A stretch of 64,000 nucleotides of DNA from Patescibacteria group bacterium (GCA_023473585.1 JAMCYU010000004.1:1682-65681); one strand, 5' to 3'. Numbered from the stretch's first letter, positions 8,812 to 62,888 are shown. Program-made: numbers and translations. The notes: generated by a model not told the origin, from the letters alone.

Positions 8812-9043
8812 ATCAGGCGGCACAACTAAAGGTAATCGTGATTCAATCGCCAAACGTTTGGGCGTTAAGGTTTATGCCGGCGAAAAAGTCATTTCCGGAA
8901 ACATCATCGTGAGACAAAGAGGCACCAGATTTCATCCGGGAGAAGGCGTTGACATGGGTAAAGATCATACTATTTTTGCCGTCAAAGAAGGCACGGTTAA
9001 ATTTACACAAAAAAACGAAGACAAGTTTATTTCCGTAGTTTAA
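8798..9043 (+). CDS. rpmA: 50S ribosomal protein L27
   Basis: [17 protein letters not shown]-terminus. Confidence 0.9.
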
Positions 9044-9060
9044 AGAAAGAGAAGTAATTT

Positions 9061-9873
9061 ATGGCCGACGAACCGACTACCGAACTGGAAATTAATCTTT
9101 TGGAACCAAATCCTCTTCAGGCGCGCGCTGTTTTTACGCAAGAATCTTTGGAAGAATTAAGCAGTTCGATTAAAGAGCACGGCGTTTTGGAACCCATAAT
9201 CGTGGCTAAAACCCCAGCCGGTTATCAGATTATTGCCGGTGAAAGACGCTGGCGGGCCTCGAAATTAGCCGGTTTAAAAAAAGTCCCCGTGGTTATTAAA
9301 GAAACGACCAGCAAAGGGATGCTCGAGATGGCTTTGGTTGAAAACGTGCAACGAGAAGACTTAAATCCGATTGACCGAGGTCAAGCCTTTCAAAGGTTAA
9401 TTGATGAATTCGGCTTGCCGGTTTCGGAAGTCGCCAAGAGAATCGGGAAGAGCGAATCCTATGTTTCCAACACGATGAGACTTCTGAATTTGCCCGACGC
9501 GATTAAGGATGGTTTAATTTCCGGAGCAACGACCGAAGGACACGCGCGAGCGATCTCCGGTTTGGGCGAGACGAAATTAATGGTTGAGGCTTACAAGATT
9601 TTATTGTCGGAAAACGCTTCGGTTCGAAGAGCCGAAGAATTGGCTCGAAAAATGAAGGCCCAAAATTCTCAAGGTCCACGGGGAGTGACGGCCAAGATTT
9701 ACAGCGATGAATTAGAAAAAATGGAACAGGACATTACCGCCAAAATTGACGGAAAAACCAAAGTGAAAATTACGCAATCAAGCACCAGTGCCCGGTTGGT
9801 TATTGTGATCACCGAAAACAGAGTTAAAACAACGGAGCTTCTTCGGGATATTCACCGGAAATTAACTTCTTAA
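9061..9873 (+). CDS. parB: ParB/Spo0J-family partition protein
   Basis: ParB box IIAGERRWRASKLAGL and an HTH region. Confidence 0.8.
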   Translation: MADEPTTELEINLLEPNPLQARAVFTQESLEELSSSIKEHGVLEPIIVAKTPAGYQIIAGERRWRASKLAGLKKVPVVIKETTSKGMLEMALVENVQREDLNPIDRGQAFQRLIDEFGLPVSEVAKRIGKSESYVSNTMRLLNLPDAIKDGLISGATTEGHARAISGLGETKLMVEAYKILLSENASVRRAEELARKMKAQNSQGPRGVTAKIYSDELEKMEQDITAKIDGKTKVKITQSSTSARLVIVITENRVKTTELLRDIHRKLTS

Positions 9874-12855: not shown

Positions 12856-13884
12856 ATGAAAAAGATTTTGTTTTTAACGAGACTTTTTTATCCGCATATC
12901 GGTGGGGTAGAGAAACATGTGCGCGAAGTAGGCAAGCGATTAGAAGAAAAAGGATATAGCGTCAGTATTATTGCAGAAGGAAGAGATGAAAAAATTGCTA
13001 GTAAAGATGGATTAAAAATCTACCATATCCCGATTTCTAGAAATGAAAAACTTAAGAAATTTCAGATTTGGGTTTGGCTTTTTAAAAACAGAAGACTAAT
13101 CGAAGAAGCCGATATCGTTCACGCTCATGACGTTGCCTTTTGGTATTTCCTTTGCCGTTTTTTATATCCCAGAAAACGATTTTTCGTTACCTTTCATGGA
13201 TATGAACAGTATCCAATCTCAAAGAAGGCAATTTTCATAAGAAAAATCTCCGAAAAAATAGCCAAGGGAAATATCTGCATTGGTAATTATATTCCCAAAT
13301 GGTATGGAACAAAACCCAGTTATTTGATTTGCGGAGCAACAGACATTTCTTCTGATTTGGCGTTACCTAATAATAATCAGGCTGTTTTTATAGGCAGACT
13401 TGATAAAGGGACAACGATCATGGCCTATCTTGAAGCTTTAAAATACCTTAAACAAAAGGGGGTGGCCATCAATTTAACTATTTGTGCTGATGGTCCATTC
13501 AGAAAAAAAGCAGAGGATTATATTAAAAAACACGGACTTGAAGTTAAAATTTTAGGCTTTGTCTCTAACCCGGAAAAATATTTAGCCAAAGCTCATTTTG
13601 CCTTTGTTTCCAGTTATTTAGCTATCTTAGAGGCGATGGCAGCTAAAAAACCCGTTTTTGCTGTTTATAATAATCCTTTAGAAAAAGATTATTTAGGATT
13701 AACTCCTTTTAGTCGGTGGATTATAAGTGAAGAAGATTCTGAAAAACTTGCCGACAAAATAAAACAATCTTTGTCTAATCCCATGATAGACAAGAAAAAT
13801 ATTGAAGGTGGTTTTAATTGGGCTAAAGATCAAACTTGGGAAAAAATGACTAATCTTTATCTTAAACTTTGGGGTTTACCATGA
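12856..13884 (+). CDS. glycosyltransferase, GT4-like (group 1)
   Basis: N-terminal LFLTRLFYPHIGGVEKHV is Glyco_trans_4-like; 342 aa. Confidence 0.65.
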   Translation: MKKILFLTRLFYPHIGGVEKHVREVGKRLEEKGYSVSIIAEGRDEKIASKDGLKIYHIPISRNEKLKKFQIWVWLFKNRRLIEEADIVHAHDVAFWYFLCRFLYPRKRFFVTFHGYEQYPISKKAIFIRKISEKIAKGNICIGNYIPKWYGTKPSYLICGATDISSDLALPNNNQAVFIGRLDKGTTIMAYLEALKYLKQKGVAINLTICADGPFRKKAEDYIKKHGLEVKILGFVSNPEKYLAKAHFAFVSSYLAILEAMAAKKPVFAVYNNPLEKDYLGLTPFSRWIISEEDSEKLADKIKQSLSNPMIDKKNIEGGFNWAKDQTWEKMTNLYLKLWGLP

Positions 13885-14834
13885 AAATTTCGTTTATTAC
13901 GACCGTTTTGAATGAGGAGAAGACGATTGATCTTCTTTTTAATTCTTTGCTTTTACAAACCGAAAAGCCGGAAGAGGTCGTGATTGTTGACGGCGGATCA
14001 AAAGACAGAACGTTACAGATATTGGAAAAGAGGAATTGGAAATTAGCTAAACAGGGGATTAAGGTTTTAATTATCGTTAAAAAAGGGAATCGGGCGGTCG
14101 GCCGCAATGAGGCCGTAAGACAGGCAACAGGCGAAGTTATCGCCCTAACTGACGCCGGTTGTGAGCTTGACCGTAATTTTTTAAAGCAGATCACCGGTCC
14201 TTTCGGCAATCCGAAAGTCGAAGTTGTCGCCGGTTATTACAAGGCCAAGACAAAAACGATTTTTGAAAAATGCGTTGTTCCTTTTGTTTTGGTCATGCCC
14301 GACAAACTTAAACCGGAAAGTTTTTTACCTTCTTCAAGGTCCATGGCCATTAAAAGAAATCTTTTTCTTAAACTGGGTGGTTTCCCCGAAGAATGTTCCG
14401 ATAACGAAGATTATGTTTTTGCCCAAAGATTAGTCAAAAAAGGGATAAAAATTCATTTTGCCAAAAACGCCTTGGTTTATTGGCTGCCCAGAACCAATTT
14501 ATTTTCCTTTTTCCTCATGATTTATCGTTTTGCCAGAGGCGATGCACAAGCCCGTTTAAGGCGTAAAAAGGTCTTGACCGTTTACTTGCGTTATCTCCTC
14601 GGGCTTATTTTTCTGGTTTTATATTTTCTTCCTTTCAAAAAACCAATCCGTCTCGATTTAATTTTTCTTTTCTTAATTTTTGCTTATTTTCTCTGGTCGA
14701 TTAAGAAAAATTACCGTTACGTTAAGCATTGGCTGGCTTTTCTTTATTTACCCCTTTTGCAAATAACGGCTGACTTAGGAGTTATGACTGGGTCGTTGAG
14801 AGGATTTTTTAAAAAAAGAGTAAAATTAAGTTAA
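13869..14834 (+). CDS. glycosyltransferase family 2 with C-terminal TM region
   Basis: ISFITTVLNEEKTI...VVIVDGGSKDRT (GT2 DXD context) and C-terminal hydrophobic helices. Confidence 0.7.
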   Translation: MGFTMKISFITTVLNEEKTIDLLFNSLLLQTEKPEEVVIVDGGSKDRTLQILEKRNWKLAKQGIKVLIIVKKGNRAVGRNEAVRQATGEVIALTDAGCELDRNFLKQITGPFGNPKVEVVAGYYKAKTKTIFEKCVVPFVLVMPDKLKPESFLPSSRSMAIKRNLFLKLGGFPEECSDNEDYVFAQRLVKKGIKIHFAKNALVYWLPRTNLFSFFLMIYRFARGDAQARLRRKKVLTVYLRYLLGLIFLVLYFLPFKKPIRLDLIFLFLIFAYFLWSIKKNYRYVKHWLAFLYLPLLQITADLGVMTGSLRGFFKKRVKLS

Positions 14835-54707: not shown

Positions 54708-54959
54708 ATGATTGCCACTTATATTTTACAAAATACAAAGGGAATGTATTATATTGGTAGCACTAGCGATTTAGAGAAGAGATTAGAAAAACATAAAAAG
54801 GGTTATTCCAGATTTACTAAAAGTAAAGGCCCTTTTAAAATTGTATATAGAGAAATTTATAATAATCTTGCAGAAGCAAAGAAAAGAGAATATTATTTAA
54901 AATCCCTTAAAAGTAGAAAATTTATAGAAAAATTAATAGAACGCGCCGCGTTCGTCTAG
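54708..54959 (+). CDS. small GIY-YIG-domain nuclease (URI domain, 83 aa)
   Basis: YILQNTKGMYYIGSTSDLEKRLEKHKKG (GIY...YIG motifs). The last 5 codons overlap the tRNA-Glu 5' end. Confidence 0.7.
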   Translation: MIATYILQNTKGMYYIGSTSDLEKRLEKHKKGYSRFTKSKGPFKIVYREIYNNLAEAKKREYYLKSLKSRKFIEKLIERAAFV

Positions 54960-55018
54960 AGGCCCAGGACGGATGGTTTTCAGCCATCAAATCGTGGGTT
55001 CGAATCCCACACGCGGTA
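54945..55018 (+). tRNA. tRNA-Glu (anticodon TTC)
   Basis: GCCGCGT-TC-GTCTAGAGGCCCAGGAC (Glu-type D-arm), anticodon stem GATGG/CCATC with loop TTTTCAG, T-arm GTGGGTTCGAATCCCAC. G1.U72 wobble. Confidence 0.7.
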
Positions 55019-55134
55019 CTTAATAAAAACGCTATAGAAATAAGAAACTTGGAAAGCCAGTAAATCACCGGTTTACCCCGTAAAATCGTTTTTCCCGATG
55101 CGAAATTGTAAATATTAAGAGGAGGTAAAATTTT

Positions 55135-55174: not shown

Positions 55175-56368
55175 CTAAGAACTAAACCTCACAGGATTCA
55201 TGAAACTGTCGTGGAGAAGATCATATGTCGCTTCCAAAACGTCTTTCACGGAAATATTTTTTAGACCAATTTTTAATTCGTCATCTAAAGTTAAATTTTC
55301 AATTTTGGTACTATAGAGGGGGTTATATTTGCCTGGCGAAGTTATTTTTAAGCCCATTTCGTAATTCTCAATTTCACAATAAGGCTTCGGAGAGCAGATA
55401 GCTACGGTTTTTATTTTTAAAGCGATGGCGGCAAAAAGAGCAAAAGTTGTTGCACTGACAACAACTTCACAGTTATTCAATAGAGCCATAAATTGGCCAA
55501 GTGTATTATTGCATTGGTTTCCTGGAATATTAAATTTACGGAGTTTTTGTACTGCATGGTTATAGATTTCTGTTTCTTCAGGTCCGCCCAAAAGGAATGG
55601 TTTGACGCCTGGAATTTTATTAAGCTCTTCAGCTAGTTTTATAAAGTAGTCTATTGGCCATCTTTTTCTTGCGTGTTTCTTTTTTGAGCCTAAATTCAAC
55701 CCAATAATTTTATACCTTTGAATTTTAAGTTTTTTTAAATAATTCATTGCATATTCGGAGTCGTTTTTATCAAGCAGAAGATGTATGGGTTGATTTTTCC
55801 ATTTCATGCCGACTGATTCCAAAAGAAGCTGTTGTATGGGTTTTTTATTTTCCTCTCTGAATTTATCGTCGATTTGGAATCTATATAAGTCTGTGGAAAC
55901 CGGACTAGCAATTTTTGGCAGGCCGTTATGGTTCATTTCAAAACCGAATTTTATCGGGCTTTCTATCAAGTGAGTTAAACTTAGGGTAACGGGATTTACT
56001 TCGAAATTATAGATAAAGTCAAATTTTTCGGACAGAAGGGTTAAAAGATTTATAGGATCATCGGATAAAATTCTATCAACAGAAGGGCAATATTTTAAAA
56101 TTTGTATGCCTTCTTTGTTGGTCAGAAACGTGATTTGGCTTGGATTATGTTGTCTTTTAAATTCATCTCCCACGATGGTAGTTCTTAATACGCTTCCGAT
56201 GCCTCCCATTTCAATTATCAAGAGCCTTTTACCAATTGGGGTACAGTATGGGCTGGGGCATGTTGTATGATGGGCTAAAGCTACCCTACACGGTTTGTAG
56301 CCGTTAAAAAATCTACAGGTAGGATTTAAGAGATAGCTCAAAGGATAGCGATTTTTTTGAGTATGCAT
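55175..56368 (-). CDS. glycosyltransferase family 9 (heptosyltransferase-like)
   Basis: KRLLIIEMGGIGSVLRTTIV (GT9 N-terminal motif). C-terminal GT-B Rossmann with LGGPEE. Confidence 0.6.
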   Translation of the reverse strand: MHTQKNRYPLSYLLNPTCRFFNGYKPCRVALAHHTTCPSPYCTPIGKRLLIIEMGGIGSVLRTTIVGDEFKRQHNPSQITFLTNKEGIQILKYCPSVDRILSDDPINLLTLLSEKFDFIYNFEVNPVTLSLTHLIESPIKFGFEMNHNGLPKIASPVSTDLYRFQIDDKFREENKKPIQQLLLESVGMKWKNQPIHLLLDKNDSEYAMNYLKKLKIQRYKIIGLNLGSKKKHARKRWPIDYFIKLAEELNKIPGVKPFLLGGPEETEIYNHAVQKLRKFNIPGNQCNNTLGQFMALLNNCEVVVSATTFALFAAIALKIKTVAICSPKPYCEIENYEMGLKITSPGKYNPLYSTKIENLTLDDELKIGLKNISVKDVLEATYDLLHDSFMNPVRFSS

Positions 56369-56375
56369 ACGATTA

Positions 56376-57007
56376 ATGTATAATCGAGATAATTCTACTA
56401 TGAATTATCAGATTGGGCAAATTAAATTTCCGATAATAATTCTTTTGGGAGGCGTTTTTGGAGTTGGAAAGACAACGCTGTCGTATAACTTATCCCGTCT
56501 TTTAGGAATAAAACAGAGAACTTCGGTAGGGGTAATATCTAAAACATTACAGTATTTATATCCTGGAAAAAAGTCTATCCGTACTCTTGACAATCTTGAA
56601 CGGAATGAATGCGATTACAAAACATTTTTAAAACAGAGCCACTTGATGTGCTCTATTGTCAACTACATTATGAGAATTGCTCATGATGATGGGGTTGATT
56701 ATATTATTGATGGTGTTCAGCTTTTACCAACTTTTATAAAGTTTCGGAAAAATGTTCTTTACCTTTTTTTAAAATGTTCGAGCGCAAAAAATTAAGACAG
56801 AGGTTGGTGAATTCTACGTCACACAGAAAAAGATATAGAGAGACGAGTTTGGAGCAAGTCAAAAAGTTAATTTCTTTACAGCAATTTTTTATCGACTCGA
56901 TCAATGAGGGAAAAAATGTCAGAATTATTGATGGAGAGAAAAGCGAAGAAGGGGTGACAAAAGAAGCTTTAGAAGTAATTAAAGAGTGGATAAAAGTTTC
57001 TTTTTAG
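56376..57007 (+). CDS. P-loop kinase-like NTPase, apparently split by a frameshift in a T-run (ORFs 56376..56795 and 56774..57007)
   Basis: Walker A GGVFGVGKTT and DGV (Walker-B-like). The second ORF continues in another frame after ttttttt at 56766-56773. Confidence 0.45.
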
Positions 57008-57719
57008 CATCATCAAAAGTGTTCGTGGATTTTGAAATTTTAAAAAATCTTGAAACCTCTTTCTTTATAAGGCGGTCTTTATTAGATATAATATATATCA
57101 ATCTAAGATAATCTCTATCTTTCGGTGTGATGGATAAAACAAATTTCTTCCGGGGTTTTTTCGGAAAAGGCAAGTGGAAATACATAACTAAATGGTTAAT
57201 GAATTCTGGTCTTATAATTGCTATTTGTAAAAAACAAGAAAGAGTCAGTCTTTCAAAGTTGAAATATCGGTTGACTTTCCAGGAGATTTTCTGATCCCTC
57301 TCGTTTTTTCTTATAAACATCCAATAAAATTGTTTATGATTTATTAAAGGGGGTGTTGCATCAAGATAAATTAAGTTATTGTTAAGAATCGCGAAGTTAT
57401 CAGGTTTAGGATCAATGCTTACGGTAATTTTTTCCTGCGATTTTATTTTTGTTAGTAAATCCAGGAGTTTATTGACATAATTTTTATATTCTTTGAGGTT
57501 ACATTTTGTCATTTCTTGAGAAAGGAGTTTGTTATAAAACGGTTCAATAATCTTAACTTTTTTATTTGTGCACAAAATTTTGTATGGATAGGGTGTTTGG
57601 ATATTGACTAGTTTCAGTTGGGAACGAAAAAGCTTAATTGCTTGACAGAGCTCTCGGACTTTTTGTGGAGATAAATGTCCGTATTTATCGGAGAGAATTT
57701 TGGTGAATTTTTTATTCAT
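56979..57719 (-). CDS. protein-kinase-like fold protein (APH/Kdo-WaaP-like phosphotransferase)
   Basis: IDPKPDNFAIL...LIYLDATPP resembles the HGD..P.N catalytic loop plus the D[F/L]. metal-binding motif of APH/WaaP-like kinases. Confidence 0.4.
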   Translation of the reverse strand: MNKKFTKILSDKYGHLSPQKVRELCQAIKLFRSQLKLVNIQTPYPYKILCTNKKVKIIEPFYNKLLSQEMTKCNLKEYKNYVNKLLDLLTKIKSQEKITVSIDPKPDNFAILNNNLIYLDATPPLINHKQFYWMFIRKNERDQKISWKVNRYFNFERLTLSCFLQIAIIRPEFINHLVMYFHLPFPKKPRKKFVLSITPKDRDYLRLIYIISNKDRLIKKEVSRFFKISKSTNTFDDAKKKLLSTL

Positions 57720-58732
57720 AAAAGTGTTTGAATAATTATGTCTTCTCTTTTTTCCAAAGAAATGAATTCAAGATGGTTTTTTGCCCTTAACATTCCCCTG
57801 ACAATTACCTTATCTCCTGTTTCTACCATTTTTTGGAGAACCCATTCCATACTTATGACAGATACTGGTTGTCCGGCGATATCTACAATATATTCTCTTG
57901 GGAAAGAAGCAGAGTTACGAATATTTATTGCTATTCCTTCTTCGTTTACAGCGTGTATCTTTTTCGAACCTAGAACGGTTTGCATTCGATATTCCTCGCG
58001 GTTAAAGCTTCCCGACAATGCGATTTTTATTATGGATCCTTCTTTCGTCCCTGCTAAATATCTATTGCGAAGCTTGGCAATTCTTTTTGCTTGCTCAAAA
58101 GAAATGTTAAACCTCTGGCTGTAATCTCTGGCATATTCATCTTGTCTTTCTTCTGGTATTGGTTGAAAATCAAGATGCTTCAGAATATAAGGATCTTTTA
58201 ATTTAGAGTCAACTAAGGCAAAATTTTCTCCTCCGTAAACGAAAAGATCAAGGTCTGACTGAGGTTTGGCTAAGAGAAAACCCCAGGAGCCCATTAATCC
58301 AAAGTCTATTCCGGGGAAAAAAACTGTTAATCTTTTAAGGATTTCGGAGTGGGGGGAGTTGGTGTCTAAAACCCTATTTATTATTCTTCTTGCCGAGAAA
58401 ACTCTGTTTTTTTCATCAAGAGGTACGGCAAGAATTGAAATTTCTGCTTCTTCGTCTAGGACGACAAAATCGTCTAGTTTTTGATCTTTTAGATCCTCTA
58501 CTCTTTTATTGTATGGTACGTAATCTTTAACATAAAGCCCGTTTAGAAGAGGTGAACTTCTATCTCCGCTTGGAGATGATCTGAATTCAAAAGTGGCAGG
58601 AACCATTCGTCTCCCTGACTGGGCTATAACTACAAGAGGATCTCTGACTGCAGCTGCTCTTTCATCGGTAATTAACTTATCGTGCGACCATAAATCGTCA
58701 GGTAGGGGCTGGATCTTTTCGAATTTATTCAT
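57716..58732 (-). CDS. pol-beta-superfamily nucleotidyltransferase with a unique N-terminal domain
   Basis: GSWGFLLAKPQSDLDLFVYGG (the GS-x9-DxD NTase signature). 4-nt overlap with the downstream kinase-like gene. Confidence 0.5.
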   Translation of the reverse strand: MNKFEKIQPLPDDLWSHDKLITDERAAAVRDPLVVIAQSGRRMVPATFEFRSSPSGDRSSPLLNGLYVKDYVPYNKRVEDLKDQKLDDFVVLDEEAEISILAVPLDEKNRVFSARRIINRVLDTNSPHSEILKRLTVFFPGIDFGLMGSWGFLLAKPQSDLDLFVYGGENFALVDSKLKDPYILKHLDFQPIPEERQDEYARDYSQRFNISFEQAKRIAKLRNRYLAGTKEGSIIKIALSGSFNREEYRMQTVLGSKKIHAVNEEGIAINIRNSASFPREYIVDIAGQPVSVISMEWVLQKMVETGDKVIVRGMLRAKNHLEFISLEKREDIIIQTLL

Positions 58733-58738
58733 ATTTTA

Positions 58739-59701
58739 TTAGCATAAGGGGGCTATTAATCCTTCTGATGGAATAATACGGACCAATATATTGGTTTCTG
58801 ATTCTAGGTAATTTACAAGTAGCTCATTGGAGTTACTTGTAATTAAGTCTTCCGGATATAAATGAGTGATAAAACAAGCTTTAATTTTAGATCCCTTCAA
58901 AATGTCAACTAGGTCAATTCCTGAAAGATGATATTTGGAGTGTTTTGTGTAGATTGGATCATTGATGCAAACTATAAGAATATCGACTTGAGAAAACTTT
59001 CTTTTTATTATTTGATGAATTGAGGCAATTTTAGCAAACTGATTTTTATAGCTAAATTCTTCCGCATTAAATAACTTACCATTTTGATCTTGGATTTTTT
59101 TCGAATATCCGGTGTCGGGAATATAGCCTATTTTGACGTTTTTGTTTTCTAAGATAAAACCGTAGGTATCTTTTATAGAATGAAAAAGCTTAACCGGAAT
59201 AATATTGATATTATCGAAAGTTATCTCTTTATTCGGCATAATTTCAATTAAAGAGATTCTGTTGTCATTTAGAAAATAATCTCCCACAATTTTTTGTTTA
59301 AACACAGTTTTTGGAGCAATAATGCAGATATTTTTGTCAGGCTGGAGTGTAATAAATTCAAGAGCGGTATTTATACCGGCGGTGTGATCTATATGGTTGT
59401 GAGAGACGAAAACAGAGTTAATAGAGAGGAGATCTTCGATCTTTGAAATTCTTCCGAGAAGCTCTGCGCCGGGGTCGACAAGCAATTTAAGTTTGTCTAA
59501 AGAGATTATAAACCCTCCATAGAGCCATTTTGTTGAAAGGACAAGATCATCCCTCAAGTAATTAGGAAATTTGAAAAAAGAAATAAAATTAGATTTTTTT
59601 TGTTTCTGACTTTTCTTAATTATCTCAAATTTTCTTTTTTTTCTTTCTTGTCTGACTTTTGTGGCGATGTGGGTCATTTGGTCAAAAATTGATTTTTCCA
59701 T
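58739..59701 (-). CDS. metallo-beta-lactamase-fold hydrolase
   Basis: VSHNHIDH (HxHxDH) with later His/Asp ligands; 320 aa and no beta-CASP. Confidence 0.7.
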   Translation of the reverse strand: MEKSIFDQMTHIATKVRQERKKRKFEIIKKSQKQKKSNFISFFKFPNYLRDDLVLSTKWLYGGFIISLDKLKLLVDPGAELLGRISKIEDLLSINSVFVSHNHIDHTAGINTALEFITLQPDKNICIIAPKTVFKQKIVGDYFLNDNRISLIEIMPNKEITFDNINIIPVKLFHSIKDTYGFILENKNVKIGYIPDTGYSKKIQDQNGKLFNAEEFSYKNQFAKIASIHQIIKRKFSQVDILIVCINDPIYTKHSKYHLSGIDLVDILKGSKIKACFITHLYPEDLITSNSNELLVNYLESETNILVRIIPSEGLIAPLC

Positions 59702-59730
59702 GGCCCTATTATATCATTAGGCTGAATATT

Positions 59731-59784
59731 ATGAGAAAAATACTGGTAACTGGTGCTTCCGGTTTAAGTAGATTAGTAATATAG
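59731..59784 (+). pseudogene. remnant of an NAD-dependent epimerase/dehydratase N-terminus
   Basis: MRKILVTGASGLSRLVI* carries the classic MRKILVTGASGFIG Rossmann start, truncated after 17 codons. Confidence 0.3.
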
Positions 59785-60094
59785 TGTTCAAAGAAGTGAA
59801 AGTTAGGGCTACCGCGAGAATTTAGAACCTCTATTCAAAAAGGAGTTTCATCACTGACGATGCTTGTTTGCCCTTAGGGCCAGCATTTGACGTTTTATCT
59901 CCAACCTTTTTTTCGTTTTATGTGAGTGGGATTTATGTCGAGCTCCCACTTTGGTATCTTTTCTTGCCATAAACCTCATTATACAACAAAATTTAGATAA
60001 AAGTACATAGTTTGTTGGTAGATTACCAGGGATTTTGGTATAATAAATAACAGTTATACTTTAGAGGAAAGGAGGTTATAGGGCGGTTTGTAGG

Positions 60095-60260
60095 AATACA
60101 AGCGTGGGGCCCCGAGCGGAGCCAAGTCTGACTTGGCGGTGTCGAGGGGAGACGAGGAGGAGGCCATAGGCCAAAGACCTGTGGGATCGGACTTAATTTA
60201 GGCAAAACCTAAATTAAAGTATCTGCGGAAACCTCCAGGTTGGATTAGCAACCTTAAGAA
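60095..60260 (+). ncRNA. candidate glmS ribozyme (GlcN6P-sensing) in the glmS leader
   Basis: GC-rich structured leader containing AGCG...GACGAGGAGGAGG...CTGCGGAAACCTCCAGGTTGG. These resemble the glmS ribozyme core segments (GACGAGGA and GGCGGAUGCCUCCCGG). It lies 120 nt upstream of glmS. Confidence 0.45.
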
Positions 60261-60382
60261 TTTTTTAAAAAACCTTATCGCAAGATAAGAAACAAAGAGA
60301 AATTTAACTAATAACCGCTAAATAAACTTCAATCTTTTATTTTTATTAATTCAATAATTTTCTTCTCTTAAAGGAGGTTTTT

Positions 60383-62152
60383 ATGTGTGGAATATTTGGT
60401 TATGTTGGTAATAAAAATAATGCAGCGGAGTTAACTCTTGAAGCGCTTAAAAAGCTTGAATATCGTGGTTATGATTCTTGGGGAATAGGCGTAGAAGCCG
60501 GCAGAAAATTTATTATTGATAAACACGCAGGTAAAATCGGTATTGCCAAGACAAATTTACCCAGCAGTAATTTTGCTTTTGGACATACACGTTGGGCAAC
60601 TCATGGTGGTGTTACTGATACAAACGCTCATCCCCATTTGGATTGTACCGGCAAAATTGCCGTGGTTCACAATGGCATCGTCGAAAATTACCAGGAGATT
60701 AAAAATCTACTCGCTGGAAGACATAAAATTGTTTCAGAAACAGATACAGAATTAGTAGCCCATCTGATAGAGGATTTTTATTATCATAAAAAACTTCCTC
60801 TACACGAAGCTGTCAGGCAAGCCTTTTTAAGGCTGCGTGGTTTATCTGCATTTTTAGTCGCCGAAACAAGTAGCAAAACTCTTGTTGCTGTAAAAACAGG
60901 GTCTCCTTTAGTTGTAGGAATCGGTAAAGAAGAAAATATGGTGGGTTCAGATGTTAACTGTTTATTATCTTTAACGAAAAACGTTATTTTTATTGAGGAT
61001 GGTCAGCTGGCGCAGATTACGGATAGCCATATTAACCTTTTTTCCGTCGAGACTGGCAAAGAAATTAAGCCTAAAGTACAAAAAGTCTCCTGGGAAGAGA
61101 CTACTACTACAAAAGAAAACTTTCCTTACTTTATGCTTAAAGAAATTTATGAACAACCAAGAATTCTGACGAATATAATGAATACCTTTGACGATAAGAT
61201 AAATTTTTTTTCGGCAAAGATAAAGAGTTCATCGCAGGTAACTTTTGTTGGTTGTGGTACGGCAAACTATGCTGGACTTAGTGGTACATATTTACTTTCT
61301 CTTTTAGCAAACAAGAAGGCAAATTCTTTTCCAGGGAGTGAATTTCCATATTACCAAAATTTCCTAGATAAGAACAGTTTTCCAATATTTCTATCGCAAA
61401 GTGGAGAGACCATAGATATAGTCCAACCTGCAGTAGAACTAAAAAGAAAAGGTCTGGAAATTGGGGCGATAGTAAACAACCTAGGCTCTACCCTCTATAG
61501 ACTTGCAGATCATAAGATACTTCTTGAAGCTGGTCCGGAAATCTGTGTGTTGTCAACAAAAGTCTTTACTGCCAAACTGGCCATATTACTTCTTGTTGGA
61601 CACGATTTGGGTAAAAACCTAGCTAAAGGAAAAGAAAAGCTACAAAAAGCAATTAGAGTAACGAATAAAATTCTTTCGAAGCAGTACTATAAGAAATATC
61701 TATATAAACTAGTTCAAAGACTGGCAAAAGTGCAACACATATATATTATCGGAAGAGGATTGTCTTATCCTGTTGCCTTAGAAGCTGCACTTAAGATTAA
61801 AGAAGTTTCCTATATCCACACAGAAGGCTTTGCAGGTGGCGAGCTAAAACATGGGGTGATAGCCTTAATCGAGAAAAATACTCCAGTTATAGTTTATGCC
61901 CCCAATGACGAAACATTACTCGAGATGTTGTCAAATGCCATGGAGATTAAAGCAAGGGGCGGATACATTATCGGAATATCTCATACTAACAACAAAATCT
62001 TTGACTGGTATCTGCCTGTGGATGATGCCCAAGAAGCCACAATAATACCCAATGTCGTTCTTGCTCAATTAATTGGTTATCACATCGCTGTTTTGCTTGG
62101 AAAAGATCCAGATAAACCCAGAAATCTTGCTAAGTCTGTCACAGTGAAGTAA
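60383..62152 (+). CDS. glmS: glutamine--fructose-6-phosphate aminotransferase
   Basis: MCGIFGYVG (Ntn Cys1) and two SIS domains, ending ...KSVTVK. Confidence 0.9.
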   Translation: MCGIFGYVGNKNNAAELTLEALKKLEYRGYDSWGIGVEAGRKFIIDKHAGKIGIAKTNLPSSNFAFGHTRWATHGGVTDTNAHPHLDCTGKIAVVHNGIVENYQEIKNLLAGRHKIVSETDTELVAHLIEDFYYHKKLPLHEAVRQAFLRLRGLSAFLVAETSSKTLVAVKTGSPLVVGIGKEENMVGSDVNCLLSLTKNVIFIEDGQLAQITDSHINLFSVETGKEIKPKVQKVSWEETTTTKENFPYFMLKEIYEQPRILTNIMNTFDDKINFFSAKIKSSSQVTFVGCGTANYAGLSGTYLLSLLANKKANSFPGSEFPYYQNFLDKNSFPIFLSQSGETIDIVQPAVELKRKGLEIGAIVNNLGSTLYRLADHKILLEAGPEICVLSTKVFTAKLAILLLVGHDLGKNLAKGKEKLQKAIRVTNKILSKQYYKKYLYKLVQRLAKVQHIYIIGRGLSYPVALEAALKIKEVSYIHTEGFAGGELKHGVIALIEKNTPVIVYAPNDETLLEMLSNAMEIKARGGYIIGISHTNNKIFDWYLPVDDAQEATIIPNVVLAQLIGYHIAVLLGKDPDKPRNLAKSVTVK

Positions 62153-62164
62153 TATATAAGCTTA

Positions 62165-62888
62165 ATGGGTATTCCCAAAGCGAAGATTATTGTGACAGAA
62201 GGAGTAAATAAAACTGATTATTATTCTGATACTCTTTTAGAGTACCTTACTGTCTTTTTAGGTAAAACTCCCAAAATACATTCTTTACTTGAAATCGGAA
62301 CCGGAAGAGGATATTTATCAATTATTCTGGCTAAAATATATCGTCGTATAAATAAAATTATAGCTACCGATATAGATGATAAAGCCGTAAATTTAGCACG
62401 TAAAAATATAGCTATCAATAATTTACAAAAAAAAGATTTTGGTCAAAAAAGGTAGTTTGTTTAATCCCGTAAAGAATCAAAAATTTGATCTTATCGTCTC
62501 GGTTCCTCCGCAAATGCCACTTACAAGACAAGACGTGCAAAACCTTTTTCCCAAAGTTCAACAATACCATCTAACCACCAGTGTTGGTGGCAAAAACGGG
62601 AGGAGCATAGTAGATAAAATCATAAGCAATGCGCCAAAATATTTGCTTCCAGGCGGAATGGTTTGTTTTGCGCACTCTGATATTATTGGCGTCAAACAAA
62701 GTTTAAGAAAACTTAGAGTTCAACAACTTCGTGCTATGATACTGGGAAGCAAAGATAAATTGTTGAGGGAAACAACACTTACTCGCTTATCAAAACAAAT
62801 TATTGAAAGAACAGGATATAGATTTCGTAGAAACGATCAAAATCAGGAATTTTTTTCTATTTATGTAATAGTTGGTATTTATGATTAA
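62165..62888 (+). CDS. SAM-dependent methyltransferase (HemK/PrmC-like), split by a frameshift in an A-run (ORFs 62165..62455 and 62439..62888)
   Basis: Motif I LEIGTGRGYLS in ORF1 and motif IV DLIVSVPPQMP in ORF2. The join lies at aaaaaa 62446-62452. Confidence 0.5.

Follow-up and report, generated by a model that had tools for sequence, protein, structure and literature searches.

A conserved four-gene cassette of Patescibacteria and distant lineages that joins a three-domain nucleotidyltransferase to a metallo-beta-lactamase-fold hydrolase and two kinase-type proteins

A stretch of 64,000 nucleotides (nt) from a Patescibacteria group bacterium (GCA_023473585.1, JAMCYU010000004.1:1682-65681), called the window below, carries at positions 56376-59701 a compact cassette that encodes a metallo-beta-lactamase-fold (MBL) hydrolase, a pol-beta nucleotidyltransferase (NTase), a kinase-like protein and a P-loop kinase. 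At least nine distinct lineages have these four genes side by side, and the arrangement is not due to chance. Our tentative interpretation, which falls somewhat short of probable, is that the enzymes of the cassette phosphorylate a small molecule and attach it to a nucleotide, and that the product is passed on to GT-B transferases. The cassette would then be an undescribed activation pathway assembled from known superfamilies, in which the NTase architecture, a re-tooled relative of glycosyltransferase family 9 (GT9) and a DUF6206-like protein are the new parts. An earlier note on this DNA had suspected a real module outside the named systems, and this holds: no PADLOC match and no NCBIfam equivalog or close PDB relative was found for the cassette, and the literature gave nothing relevant on the gene combination, on DUF6206/PF19709 or on GT9 in Patescibacteria. 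Not contained in that note were the membership of the P-loop kinase in a four-gene core, the restriction of the GT9-like gene to Patescibacteria together with the lack of its catalytic motifs, and the partial decay of the window copy.

The adjacency is seen in six lineages of Patescibacteria-type loci and in three to four much more distant metagenomic loci, the genomic context having been read for about a dozen of the ~159 members of the NTase family. Every close relative with enough contig has the same neighbours. For example, the gene order is SDR (short-chain dehydrogenase/reductase) epimerase, GT4, MBL, NTase, a 102-amino-acid (aa) remnant of the kinase-like protein, P-loop kinase and GT9-like protein in the metagenome-assembled genome (MAG) MAG191 of Patescibacteria (loci L001/2/11), and SDR, MBL, NTase, kinase-like protein, P-loop kinase and GT9-like protein in L003. 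Shorter forms of the same order are found in L007 (SDR, MBL, NTase, kinase-like protein) and L008 (MBL, NTase, kinase-like protein, P-loop kinase). The lineage of L004/9/10 has a rearranged version: NDP-sugar (nucleoside diphosphate sugar) dehydrogenase, MBL, kinase-like protein, P-loop kinase, GT9-like protein, APH, His-phosphatase, NTase and adenosine deaminase. In all of these the NTase is 38-51% identical to that of the window. Co-occurrence in other genomes, which had been proposed as a check on the module, is therefore strong and comes from independent lineages.

The distant loci are L016/17, L019/20, L023 and the partial L021. Here the genes lie on one strand in the order P-loop kinase, MBL, NTase and kinase-like protein, overlaps of 4-8 nt between cassette genes recur, and identity to the window proteins is down to 29-34% for the MBL and about 20% for the NTase. 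Because these cassettes keep all four genes, the core is defined as four genes including the P-loop kinase. The distant copies were recovered by probing JGI metagenomes with the MBL alignment, except for L016/17, which came from the look-up of an NTase relative of about 20% identity; a search for loci with a narrow NTase alignment gave one GTDB genome and none in the JGI metagenomes. In the Patescibacteria clade the P-loop gene has been turned round, so that it stands head-to-head with the GT9-like gene at a distance of 22-31 nt, as seen in four of four Patescibacteria lineages with enough contig, and the GT9-like gene is a Patescibacteria-specific add-on to the core. Other sugar-related genes recur as well. 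A GalE/HldD/RmlB-like SDR is divergent from the MBL gene in L001, L003 and L007, an NDP-sugar dehydrogenase is present in L004, and in L001 and L023 the cassette has a GT4 gene within or next to it; these two GT4 genes share a similar N-terminal sequence and the same top NCBIfam matches, and are apparently homologous. The flanking genes beyond these differ in every genome.

In the window, all five open reading frames (ORFs) located by the earlier note are present; they comprise the cassette and the adjoining GT9-like gene. Three genes on the minus strand encode the MBL (58739-59701, 320 aa, a phosphodiesterase-type hydrolase), the NTase (57716-58732, 338 aa) and the kinase-like protein (56979-57719, 246 aa). 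The proposed translational coupling is borne out by an ATGA overlap shared by the NTase stop and the start of the kinase-like gene, while the distance from the MBL stop to the NTase start, given before as 7 nt, is 6 nt (TAA-taaaat-ATG). A promoter-like site, TTCTCA-18-TG-TATAAT, lies upstream of this operon (59708-59737, minus strand); with 10/12 matches it is a consensus match only. The P-loop kinase is encoded on the plus strand in two pieces, a 5′ part with the Walker A motif GGVFGVGKTT (56400-56795, 131 aa) and a 3′ part in the -1 frame (56774-57007, 77 aa) whose end overlaps convergently with the last 29 nt of the kinase-like gene. An alternative upstream ATG at 56376 would extend the 5′ part to 139 aa; ATG 56400, which is also annotated by NCBI and stands behind a TTGAGT-16-TATAAT match (56357-56384, plus strand), is the likely start. 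The GT9-like GT-B protein (397 aa) is encoded at 55175-56368 on the minus strand. No transmembrane-like segment was found in any of these proteins. The locus tags of the source MAG in NCBI are M1575_013xx, and the window is part of a 198-kb contig.

The NTase is the most distinctive component. Its motif, G148-S149-x10-D160-x-D162, is invariant in 61 sequences of the family and agrees with the pol-beta pattern hG[GS]-x9-13-Dh[DE]h; the GS...DxD signature (GS...DLD in the window) was recognized before with a spacing of x9, which is actually x10. The match to PF01909 is at E 1e-3 and 19.9 bits for the window protein (cut-off 21), and reaches 2e-6 to 1e-5 and 23-28.5 bits in relatives. In an AlphaFold2 model built on the 61-sequence alignment (pLDDT 97, pTM 0.92), which replaced a poor earlier model from 6 sequences (pLDDT 64), the chain is predicted to fold into three domains: a beta-rich N-terminal domain of about residues 1-112 (58397-58732), the catalytic core of residues 113-250 (57983-58396), and a C-terminal OB fold of residues 251-338 (57716-57982 with the stop), modelled with five strands and an inter-strand helix. 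The novel N-terminal domain that had been noticed before is thus present, with about 112 rather than 140 aa, and Foldseek found no structural match for it; the OB fold had been overlooked. Conserved residues of the N-terminal domain include Gly56, Arg58, Lys69 and Tyr50, the last of which is kept in 93% of the 61 relatives and is Phe in the window copy. Within the core, Glu247 is acidic in 75% of the family and may serve as a third carboxylate.

Foldseek searches of the PDB and BFVD gave no whole-chain match to the NTase model. Locally, the model is most similar to Stn1, RPA32, the anticodon-binding domain of LysRS, SSB and ExoVII (E about 2e-3, TM 0.34-0.55); since the Foldseek output lacks query coordinates, these OB-fold matches were assigned to the C-terminal barrel because of its topology. 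At the level of profiles, the 61-sequence alignment is nearest in the PDB to Trf4 (2.4e-4) and MNT (2.5e-3), followed by TUT7, Cid1 and kanamycin nucleotidyltransferase, and these similarities cover the generic helix-GS-DxD segment only. Searches of the PDB with single sequences gave nothing useful for the NTase, the kinase-like protein or the P-loop protein, and weak local matches only for the MBL. An exhaustive HMMER search of 1.84 billion representative proteins found 159 NTase-family members at E <= 1e-3 and 19 at E <= 1e-30, and a word-indexed search of 5.8 billion proteins gave six relatives; none of the members whose cluster records were looked up bears a functional name. As judged from the model, the three-domain architecture is new and has no counterpart in the PDB.

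The MBL belongs to the Lactamase_B_2 type (PF12706, E 3.4e-16, 59.9 bits, above the cut-off of 27). The HxHxDH motif reported before is present as SHNHIDH, and the whole metal site (HxHxDH/H/D/H) is intact, with H101, H103, D105, H106, H174, D196, H254 and H258 invariant in six sequences; the protein also carries a basic N-terminal extension. Its nearest named relatives in NCBIfam are RNase Z (2.6e-9), PhnP, cyclic-nucleotide phosphodiesterase and RNase J, all far below their cut-offs: the PhnP model TIGR03307, for example, gives E 2.4e-7 and 30 bits against a cut-off of 272, and the protein is likewise below the curated cut-offs for RNase Z (TIGR02651) and PF00753 (17.9 bits vs 22.7). The MBL profile finds 1zkp and 6b9v as the nearest PDB entries, and then Apyc1 and PhnP (3g1p). 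Identity as a class B beta-lactamase was rejected, as the PF00753 score is below its cut-off and the type is that of Lactamase_B_2 and RNase Z-PhnP.

The P-loop protein is assigned to a superfamily of small-molecule kinases. Already the fragment alone matches the 2-phosphoglycerate kinase model NF003259 (E 9e-11), and when the frame is repaired the match extends across the whole kinase domain (E 1.6e-16), as does that to mevalonate-3-phosphate 5-kinase (5e-9). The NF003259 score of the repaired protein, 60.5 bits, is far from the cut-off of 343 for equivalog membership, and the alignments therefore point to membership in the 2-phosphoglycerate-kinase superfamily at the superfamily level only. 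Weak Pfam matches to Zeta-toxin and AAA_18 are also seen. After the correction of one base, the protein aligns end to end with intact orthologues of 195-231 aa and is 49% identical to that of L001.

The kinase-like protein carries the motif SIDPKPDNF...IYLDATPP, which fits the catalytic loop DxKPxN and the downstream Asp of protein kinases. Its D, N and downstream motif are conserved across six members, while the Lys is confined to the Patescibacteria clade. There is a match to DUF6206 (PF19709) at E 5e-5 and 23 bits, below the cut-off of 30.4, found in four of the six family members. The label APH/WaaP-like given to this protein before can be retained as far as this motif and the sub-threshold DUF6206 match go, and finds no counterpart in any kinase profile: a kinase fold was supported neither by a PDB match at E <= 10 nor by an NCBIfam match, and alignment of the family with two APH-family proteins by hhalign gave a probability below 1%. 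A word-indexed search with the family returned two proteins only, both already in the query alignment. "Kinase-like" is thus a call made at the level of the motif.

The GT9-like protein is a true homolog of its family that has lost both catalytic motifs of the heptosyltransferases. It matches PF01075 at E 1.7e-10 and 41 bits (cut-off 22) and 3tov at E 7.6e-9 alone and 7.2e-14 as a profile over 285 residues, so that the heptosyltransferase-like homology proposed before stands (3tov, E 7e-14), while both signature motifs are missing. Asp13 is the catalytic base of heptosyltransferases (PMC5713226); the segment HLGDVILTT of 3tov aligns with GIGSVLRTT here, LGD being replaced by IGS, and the Ser is invariant in the four orthologues. 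The signature D261(T/S)(G/A)xxH266 is conserved in heptosyltransferases and binds the heptose of ADP-heptose (PMC3559599); the corresponding NDSGPMH of 3tov and NDSGLMH of WaaF (1psw) align with SATTFAL/SATTFGL. Because Asp13 and the D...H signature are missing, the protein cannot be filed as an ADP-heptose heptosyltransferase, and it may use another donor or another chemistry, or may be non-catalytic. All four orthologues have an N-terminal C-x8-C-x9-C(-x4-C) segment in which C18, C27 and C37 are invariant and the fourth position is a variable Cys or His; this is probably a metal-binding finger. NCBI annotates the protein as 344 aa from an internal Met, by which the first 53 codons including the Cys finger are dropped.

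The small-molecule pathway is favoured because the core P-loop kinase is of a small-molecule family, the MBL is of a phosphodiesterase type, and GT9-like, GT4, SDR and NDP-sugar dehydrogenase genes recur in the neighbourhood. The catalytic motifs of both the NTase and the MBL are intact, as described above. On this basis, the substrate would be a small phosphorylated metabolite such as a sugar, a polyol or a hydroxy-acid, processed in the cytoplasm through a nucleotide-linked intermediate; its nature, like the order of the steps and the destination of the product, is deduced from sequence and genomic context. In the first step, the kinase of the 2-phosphoglycerate-kinase family, possibly together with the DxKPxN...D protein, would phosphorylate the substrate. 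The NTase would then move a nucleoside monophosphate from a nucleoside triphosphate onto it, and the conserved basic and aromatic residues of the N-terminal domain and the OB domain may hold the substrate. Next, the RNase Z/PhnP-type MBL could cleave a phosphodiester, either removing or recycling the nucleotide handle or opening a cyclic or diester intermediate. In Patescibacteria, the product may finally be handed to the GT-B proteins, that is, the atypical GT9-like protein and sometimes GT4, the SDR epimerase working on the nucleotide-linked species, and a cell-surface glycoconjugate would be the final target.

Partial precedents for such a pathway are known. In the ADP-heptose and NDP-sugar pathways (GmhA-HldE-GmhB-HldD, then WaaC/WaaF), as in the cassette, kinase(s), a phosphate-ester hydrolase, a nucleotidyltransferase and an SDR epimerase go with a GT9-family protein, and the cassette SDR scores against both HldD and GalE models. 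The families differ, however: a 2PGK-type P-loop kinase stands in place of PfkB, a pol-beta NTase in place of the cytidylyltransferase type, and an MBL in place of HAD. No gmhA, hldE, gmhB or hldD was found in the cluster within the window, and Patescibacteria are not known to have lipopolysaccharide. Lic and teichoic-acid systems (LicA, LicC, LicD/TagF-type) make phosphodiester-linked surface decorations, and pol-beta-fold and GT-B-like proteins act as phosphotransferases there. The kinase-like protein, the NTase and the transferase of the cassette recall this scheme, which, unlike the cassette, has no MBL and no second, P-loop kinase; Pfam and NCBIfam scans gave no profile similarity to LicA, LicC, LicD or TagF. 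PhnN and PhnP of the C-P lyase pathway are a P-loop small-molecule kinase and an MBL-fold phosphodiesterase that act on phosphorylated ribose. The cassette has a similar pair, and PhnP is among the named relatives of its MBL, but no other phn genes are present and the kinase is of the 2PGK type, not of the guanylate-kinase type.

Several points weigh against this interpretation. No protein reaches a substrate-specific family, and all matches score much lower than the equivalog cut-offs require. The OB domain of the NTase is like those that bind nucleic acids, and the core profile of this protein is nearest to RNA-tailing enzymes; the sugar-1-phosphate nucleotidylyltransferases known so far have other folds. 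Across its six members the kinase-like family has no conserved N-lobe lysine, and the GT9-like protein, without Asp13 and D(T/S)(G/A)xxH, may be no transferase at all. Furthermore, L016 and L019/20 have no glycosyltransferase in the available DNA, and their neighbours are NDK, Nudix and Ham1. Of the two functions suggested in the earlier note, nucleotidylation and phosphorylation of a small molecule or glycan is nonetheless the better fit, with the kinase family and the GT-B, SDR and NDP-sugar dehydrogenase neighbours in its favour and the OB fold and the Trf4/TUT7-like core against it. The other, RNA end healing, gains from the OB fold, the Trf4/TUT7 core and the RNase Z-like MBL, and suffers from a kinase family that is not that of polynucleotide kinases.

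This second idea, in the broader form of nucleic-acid end processing or oligonucleotide synthesis for repair, tailing or signalling, is the strongest competitor, although we consider it unlikely. The NTase with its OB domain would bind the 3′ end of RNA, tRNA or single-stranded DNA, or prime on Tyr50, and add nucleotides without a template, the MBL would trim or cleave, and the kinases would phosphorylate termini. The resemblance of the best structural matches to nucleic-acid-binding OB folds (Stn1, RPA32, LysRS, SSB and ExoVII) and of the core profile to Trf4, TUT7 and Cid1 fits such a role, as do the RNase Z- and RNase J-like character and basic extension of the MBL and the nucleotide-metabolism neighbours (NDK, Nudix, Ham1 and adenosine deaminase). 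However, the OB matches are weak, none having a TM above 0.55, and sugars and other ligands too are bound by OB folds; the NTase core resembles PDB entries in nothing beyond the generic GS...DxD segment; the P-loop kinase groups with 2-phosphoglycerate kinase and not with the PNK/Clp1 type; and the recurrent GT-B and SDR neighbours are left unexplained. Compared with RNA tailing and repair systems (Trf4/TUT7/Cid1; RNase Z with the CCA-adding enzyme; Pnkp/Hen1), which share with the cassette the NTase core profile, an RNase Z-like MBL and an OB fold, it lacks the PAP-associated or CCA head/neck domain, a kinase of the polynucleotide-kinase type, a ligase and a methyltransferase partner. Indeed, Pfam and NCBIfam scans of the cluster members and called neighbours revealed no polynucleotide kinase-phosphatase, ligase or Hen1/RtcB, and no 2′,3′-phosphoesterase or HEPN partner was seen. 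An analogy can also be drawn with HalB of the Hailong system, an untemplated pol-beta NTase that synthesizes poly-dA primed on a conserved tyrosine (PMC13434031): the well-conserved Tyr50 recalls it, as does the OB domain, a possible binding site for nucleic acid. Unlike Hailong, the cassette has no HalA-like membrane partner and no PADLOC match, and HalB did not appear in the PDB sequence and fold searches.

A more far-reaching version, a nucleic-acid-directed system of a previously unknown kind in ultra-small episymbiotic prokaryotes, seems rather improbable to us. Taken together and with the same reserve, the NTase would make or tail an oligonucleotide without a template, perhaps primed on Tyr50, or would activate a tRNA or a DNA base or end, the MBL would trim, the two kinase-type proteins would phosphorylate, and the GT9-like protein of Patescibacteria would glycosylate or transfer the product.

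Still less credit is given to the idea that a small variable island carries a module for nucleotide signalling or anti-phage/conflict functions, in which the NTase would make a signal, the Apyc1/YhfI-like MBL would degrade it and the kinases would modify it. The family is rare and patchy (159 in 1.84 billion representatives), the flanking genes differ per genome, the window copy lies by a tRNA-Glu and is lower in GC, the MBL is weakly like cyclic-nucleotide phosphodiesterase and Apyc1, L001 has a ParE/Phd pair about 2.3 kb past the GT9-like gene, and genes decay in several lineages, as they typically do in accessory systems. On the other hand, none of the five proteins matches a PADLOC-DB 2.0 family at E <= 0.1, no effector-like gene (transmembrane, nuclease, SIR2, TIR or HEPN domain) is present, searches of viral contigs, phage records and plasmids gave no relatives of the cassette, and there is no direct repeat as an island boundary. 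Finally, modification of xenobiotics or antibiotics, by which an ANT-like NTase, an APH-like kinase, a P-loop phosphotransferase and the hydrolase would inactivate an aminoglycoside- or nucleoside-like compound, is very improbable, since the weak profile matches to kanamycin/streptomycin nucleotidyltransferases (E 0.011-0.4) are limited to the generic motif, the MBL is not of the class B beta-lactamase type, and a fixed, translationally coupled order across distant lineages, without plasmid relatives, would be unexpected for independent resistance genes, even though an APH-family kinase is present in the L004 cluster and the P-loop protein has the Zeta-toxin/AAA_18 matches. The antibiotic-resistance and beta-lactamase readings were accordingly rejected on family scores and the conserved operon structure, and the ANT, APH and beta-lactamase families, named before as those whose recognition would speak against a new module, do not accommodate the genes.

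Whatever its function, the pathway is probably impaired in this genome, to judge from a frameshifted P-loop kinase, a deleted epimerase and the change of Tyr50 to Phe in the NTase. The frameshift described before at a T7 homopolymer (56764-56770, plus strand; T_TTT_TTA in frame), by which the frame changes by -1, is confirmed by the sequence and by the alignment to intact orthologues, and a local family HMM recognizes each of the two pieces (E 6e-66 and 3e-29). The pieces recur without any difference in two NCBI MAGs that were deposited separately, and in one Logan assembly, which makes a random sequencing error at the T7 run unlikely, although a systematic homopolymer error is conceivable. 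Programmed -1 frameshifting at T_TTT_TTA is not favoured, as no stable RNA structure was found downstream (z = +1.08). A second split gene in the window encodes a methyltransferase (EIGTGRG ... DLIVSVPP; 62165-62455 and 62439-62888, plus strand) whose frame changes at an A8 run (62427-62434), and both of its halves are likewise identical in two NCBI MAGs. Together, the T7 and A8 shifts point either to genuine frameshift mutations or slippage at homopolymers, or to an error specific to the sequencing platform. A relic of the SDR epimerase remains at 59731-59784 on the plus strand as 17 codons, MRKILVTGASGLSRLVI-stop, of which 11/12 residues are identical to the N-terminus of the L001 epimerase at the syntenic position (tblastn). 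In L001 itself (9017-9593), the rest of the cassette is intact but no more than the C-terminal 102 aa of the kinase-like protein are still encoded, a decay that is independent of, and parallel to, that in the window.

The surroundings of the cluster in the window are as follows. The GC content of the cluster genes is 0.30-0.38, compared with 0.404 +/- 0.034 in the other long ORFs, and the cluster is bounded by tRNA-Glu and a glmS ribozyme. The tRNA-Glu(TTC) (54945-55019, plus strand) forms the left border of the low-GC cluster, and its start is overlapped by 15 nt by an 83-aa ORF of the GIY-YIG nuclease family (54708-54959, plus strand). On the other side, the glmS glucosamine-6-phosphate ribozyme (Rfam RF00234, 67 bits, E 2.6e-13) lies at 60090-60314 on the plus strand, directly followed by the glmS gene (60383-62152); a 60-aa ORF at 60023-60205 is spurious and is explained by the ribozyme. 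Insertion of an island at the tRNA-Glu was considered, but no direct repeat of the tRNA end was found to flank the cluster, which leaves lower GC as the one point in its favour.

Further contexts of the NTase and the MBL were found in other genomes. NTase-only relatives in nanohaloarchaeal genomes, one of them a "Candidatus Nanosalina", lie beside a CbiR-like TIM-barrel phosphodiesterase (L012, 8912-9610; L014, 5416-6105), with GT4 within about 1-7 kb. A few kb downstream of the cassette in L020 (6393-8933), there is a second operon of a pol-beta NTase (302 aa), a radical SAM protein and a CbiR-like TIM-barrel phosphodiesterase. The pairing of NTase and phosphodiesterase thus recurs with non-homologous phosphodiesterases. 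In L022 (2257-7927), genes for a radical SAM/SPASM protein, a methyltransferase-like ORF, a pyruvoyl-dependent arginine decarboxylase and an ARMT1-like (DUF89) protein are followed by a 260-aa protein, which has an NTase-like GS...DxD motif and no Pfam match and adjoins an MBL of this family; this context suggests an archaeal origin and a persistent functional pair of an NTase-type protein and this MBL. Over all loci, an MBL together with an NTase is indeed the combination that persists most. In the L004/L010 lineage, the NTase has moved away from the MBL and is flanked by a His_Phos_1 phosphatase (dPGM/CobC-like) on one side and by an adenosine deaminase on the other (L010, 8285-11987), and an APH-family (homoserine-kinase-like) kinase is adjacent; the phosphatase, deaminase and APH-family kinase are possible extra steps of the pathway. 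The toxin-antitoxin pair of L001, ParE and Phd-YefM, is encoded at 13683-14192.

Contact with hosts is essential to Patescibacteria and comparable ultra-small organisms, whose surface chemistry and accessory enzymology are scarcely known. Here a compact cassette, made of families without a characterised member, has been held together over a large evolutionary distance, and its proteins are soluble and small and hence open to direct in vitro work. If the cassette acts on nucleic acids, it would represent a new modification or signalling system. If it makes a nucleotide-activated metabolite, as we tentatively favour, it would be a wholesale non-orthologous counterpart of a sugar-nucleotide or teichoic-acid-type pathway, and its NTase would bring a new reaction class to the pol-beta nucleotidyltransferases.

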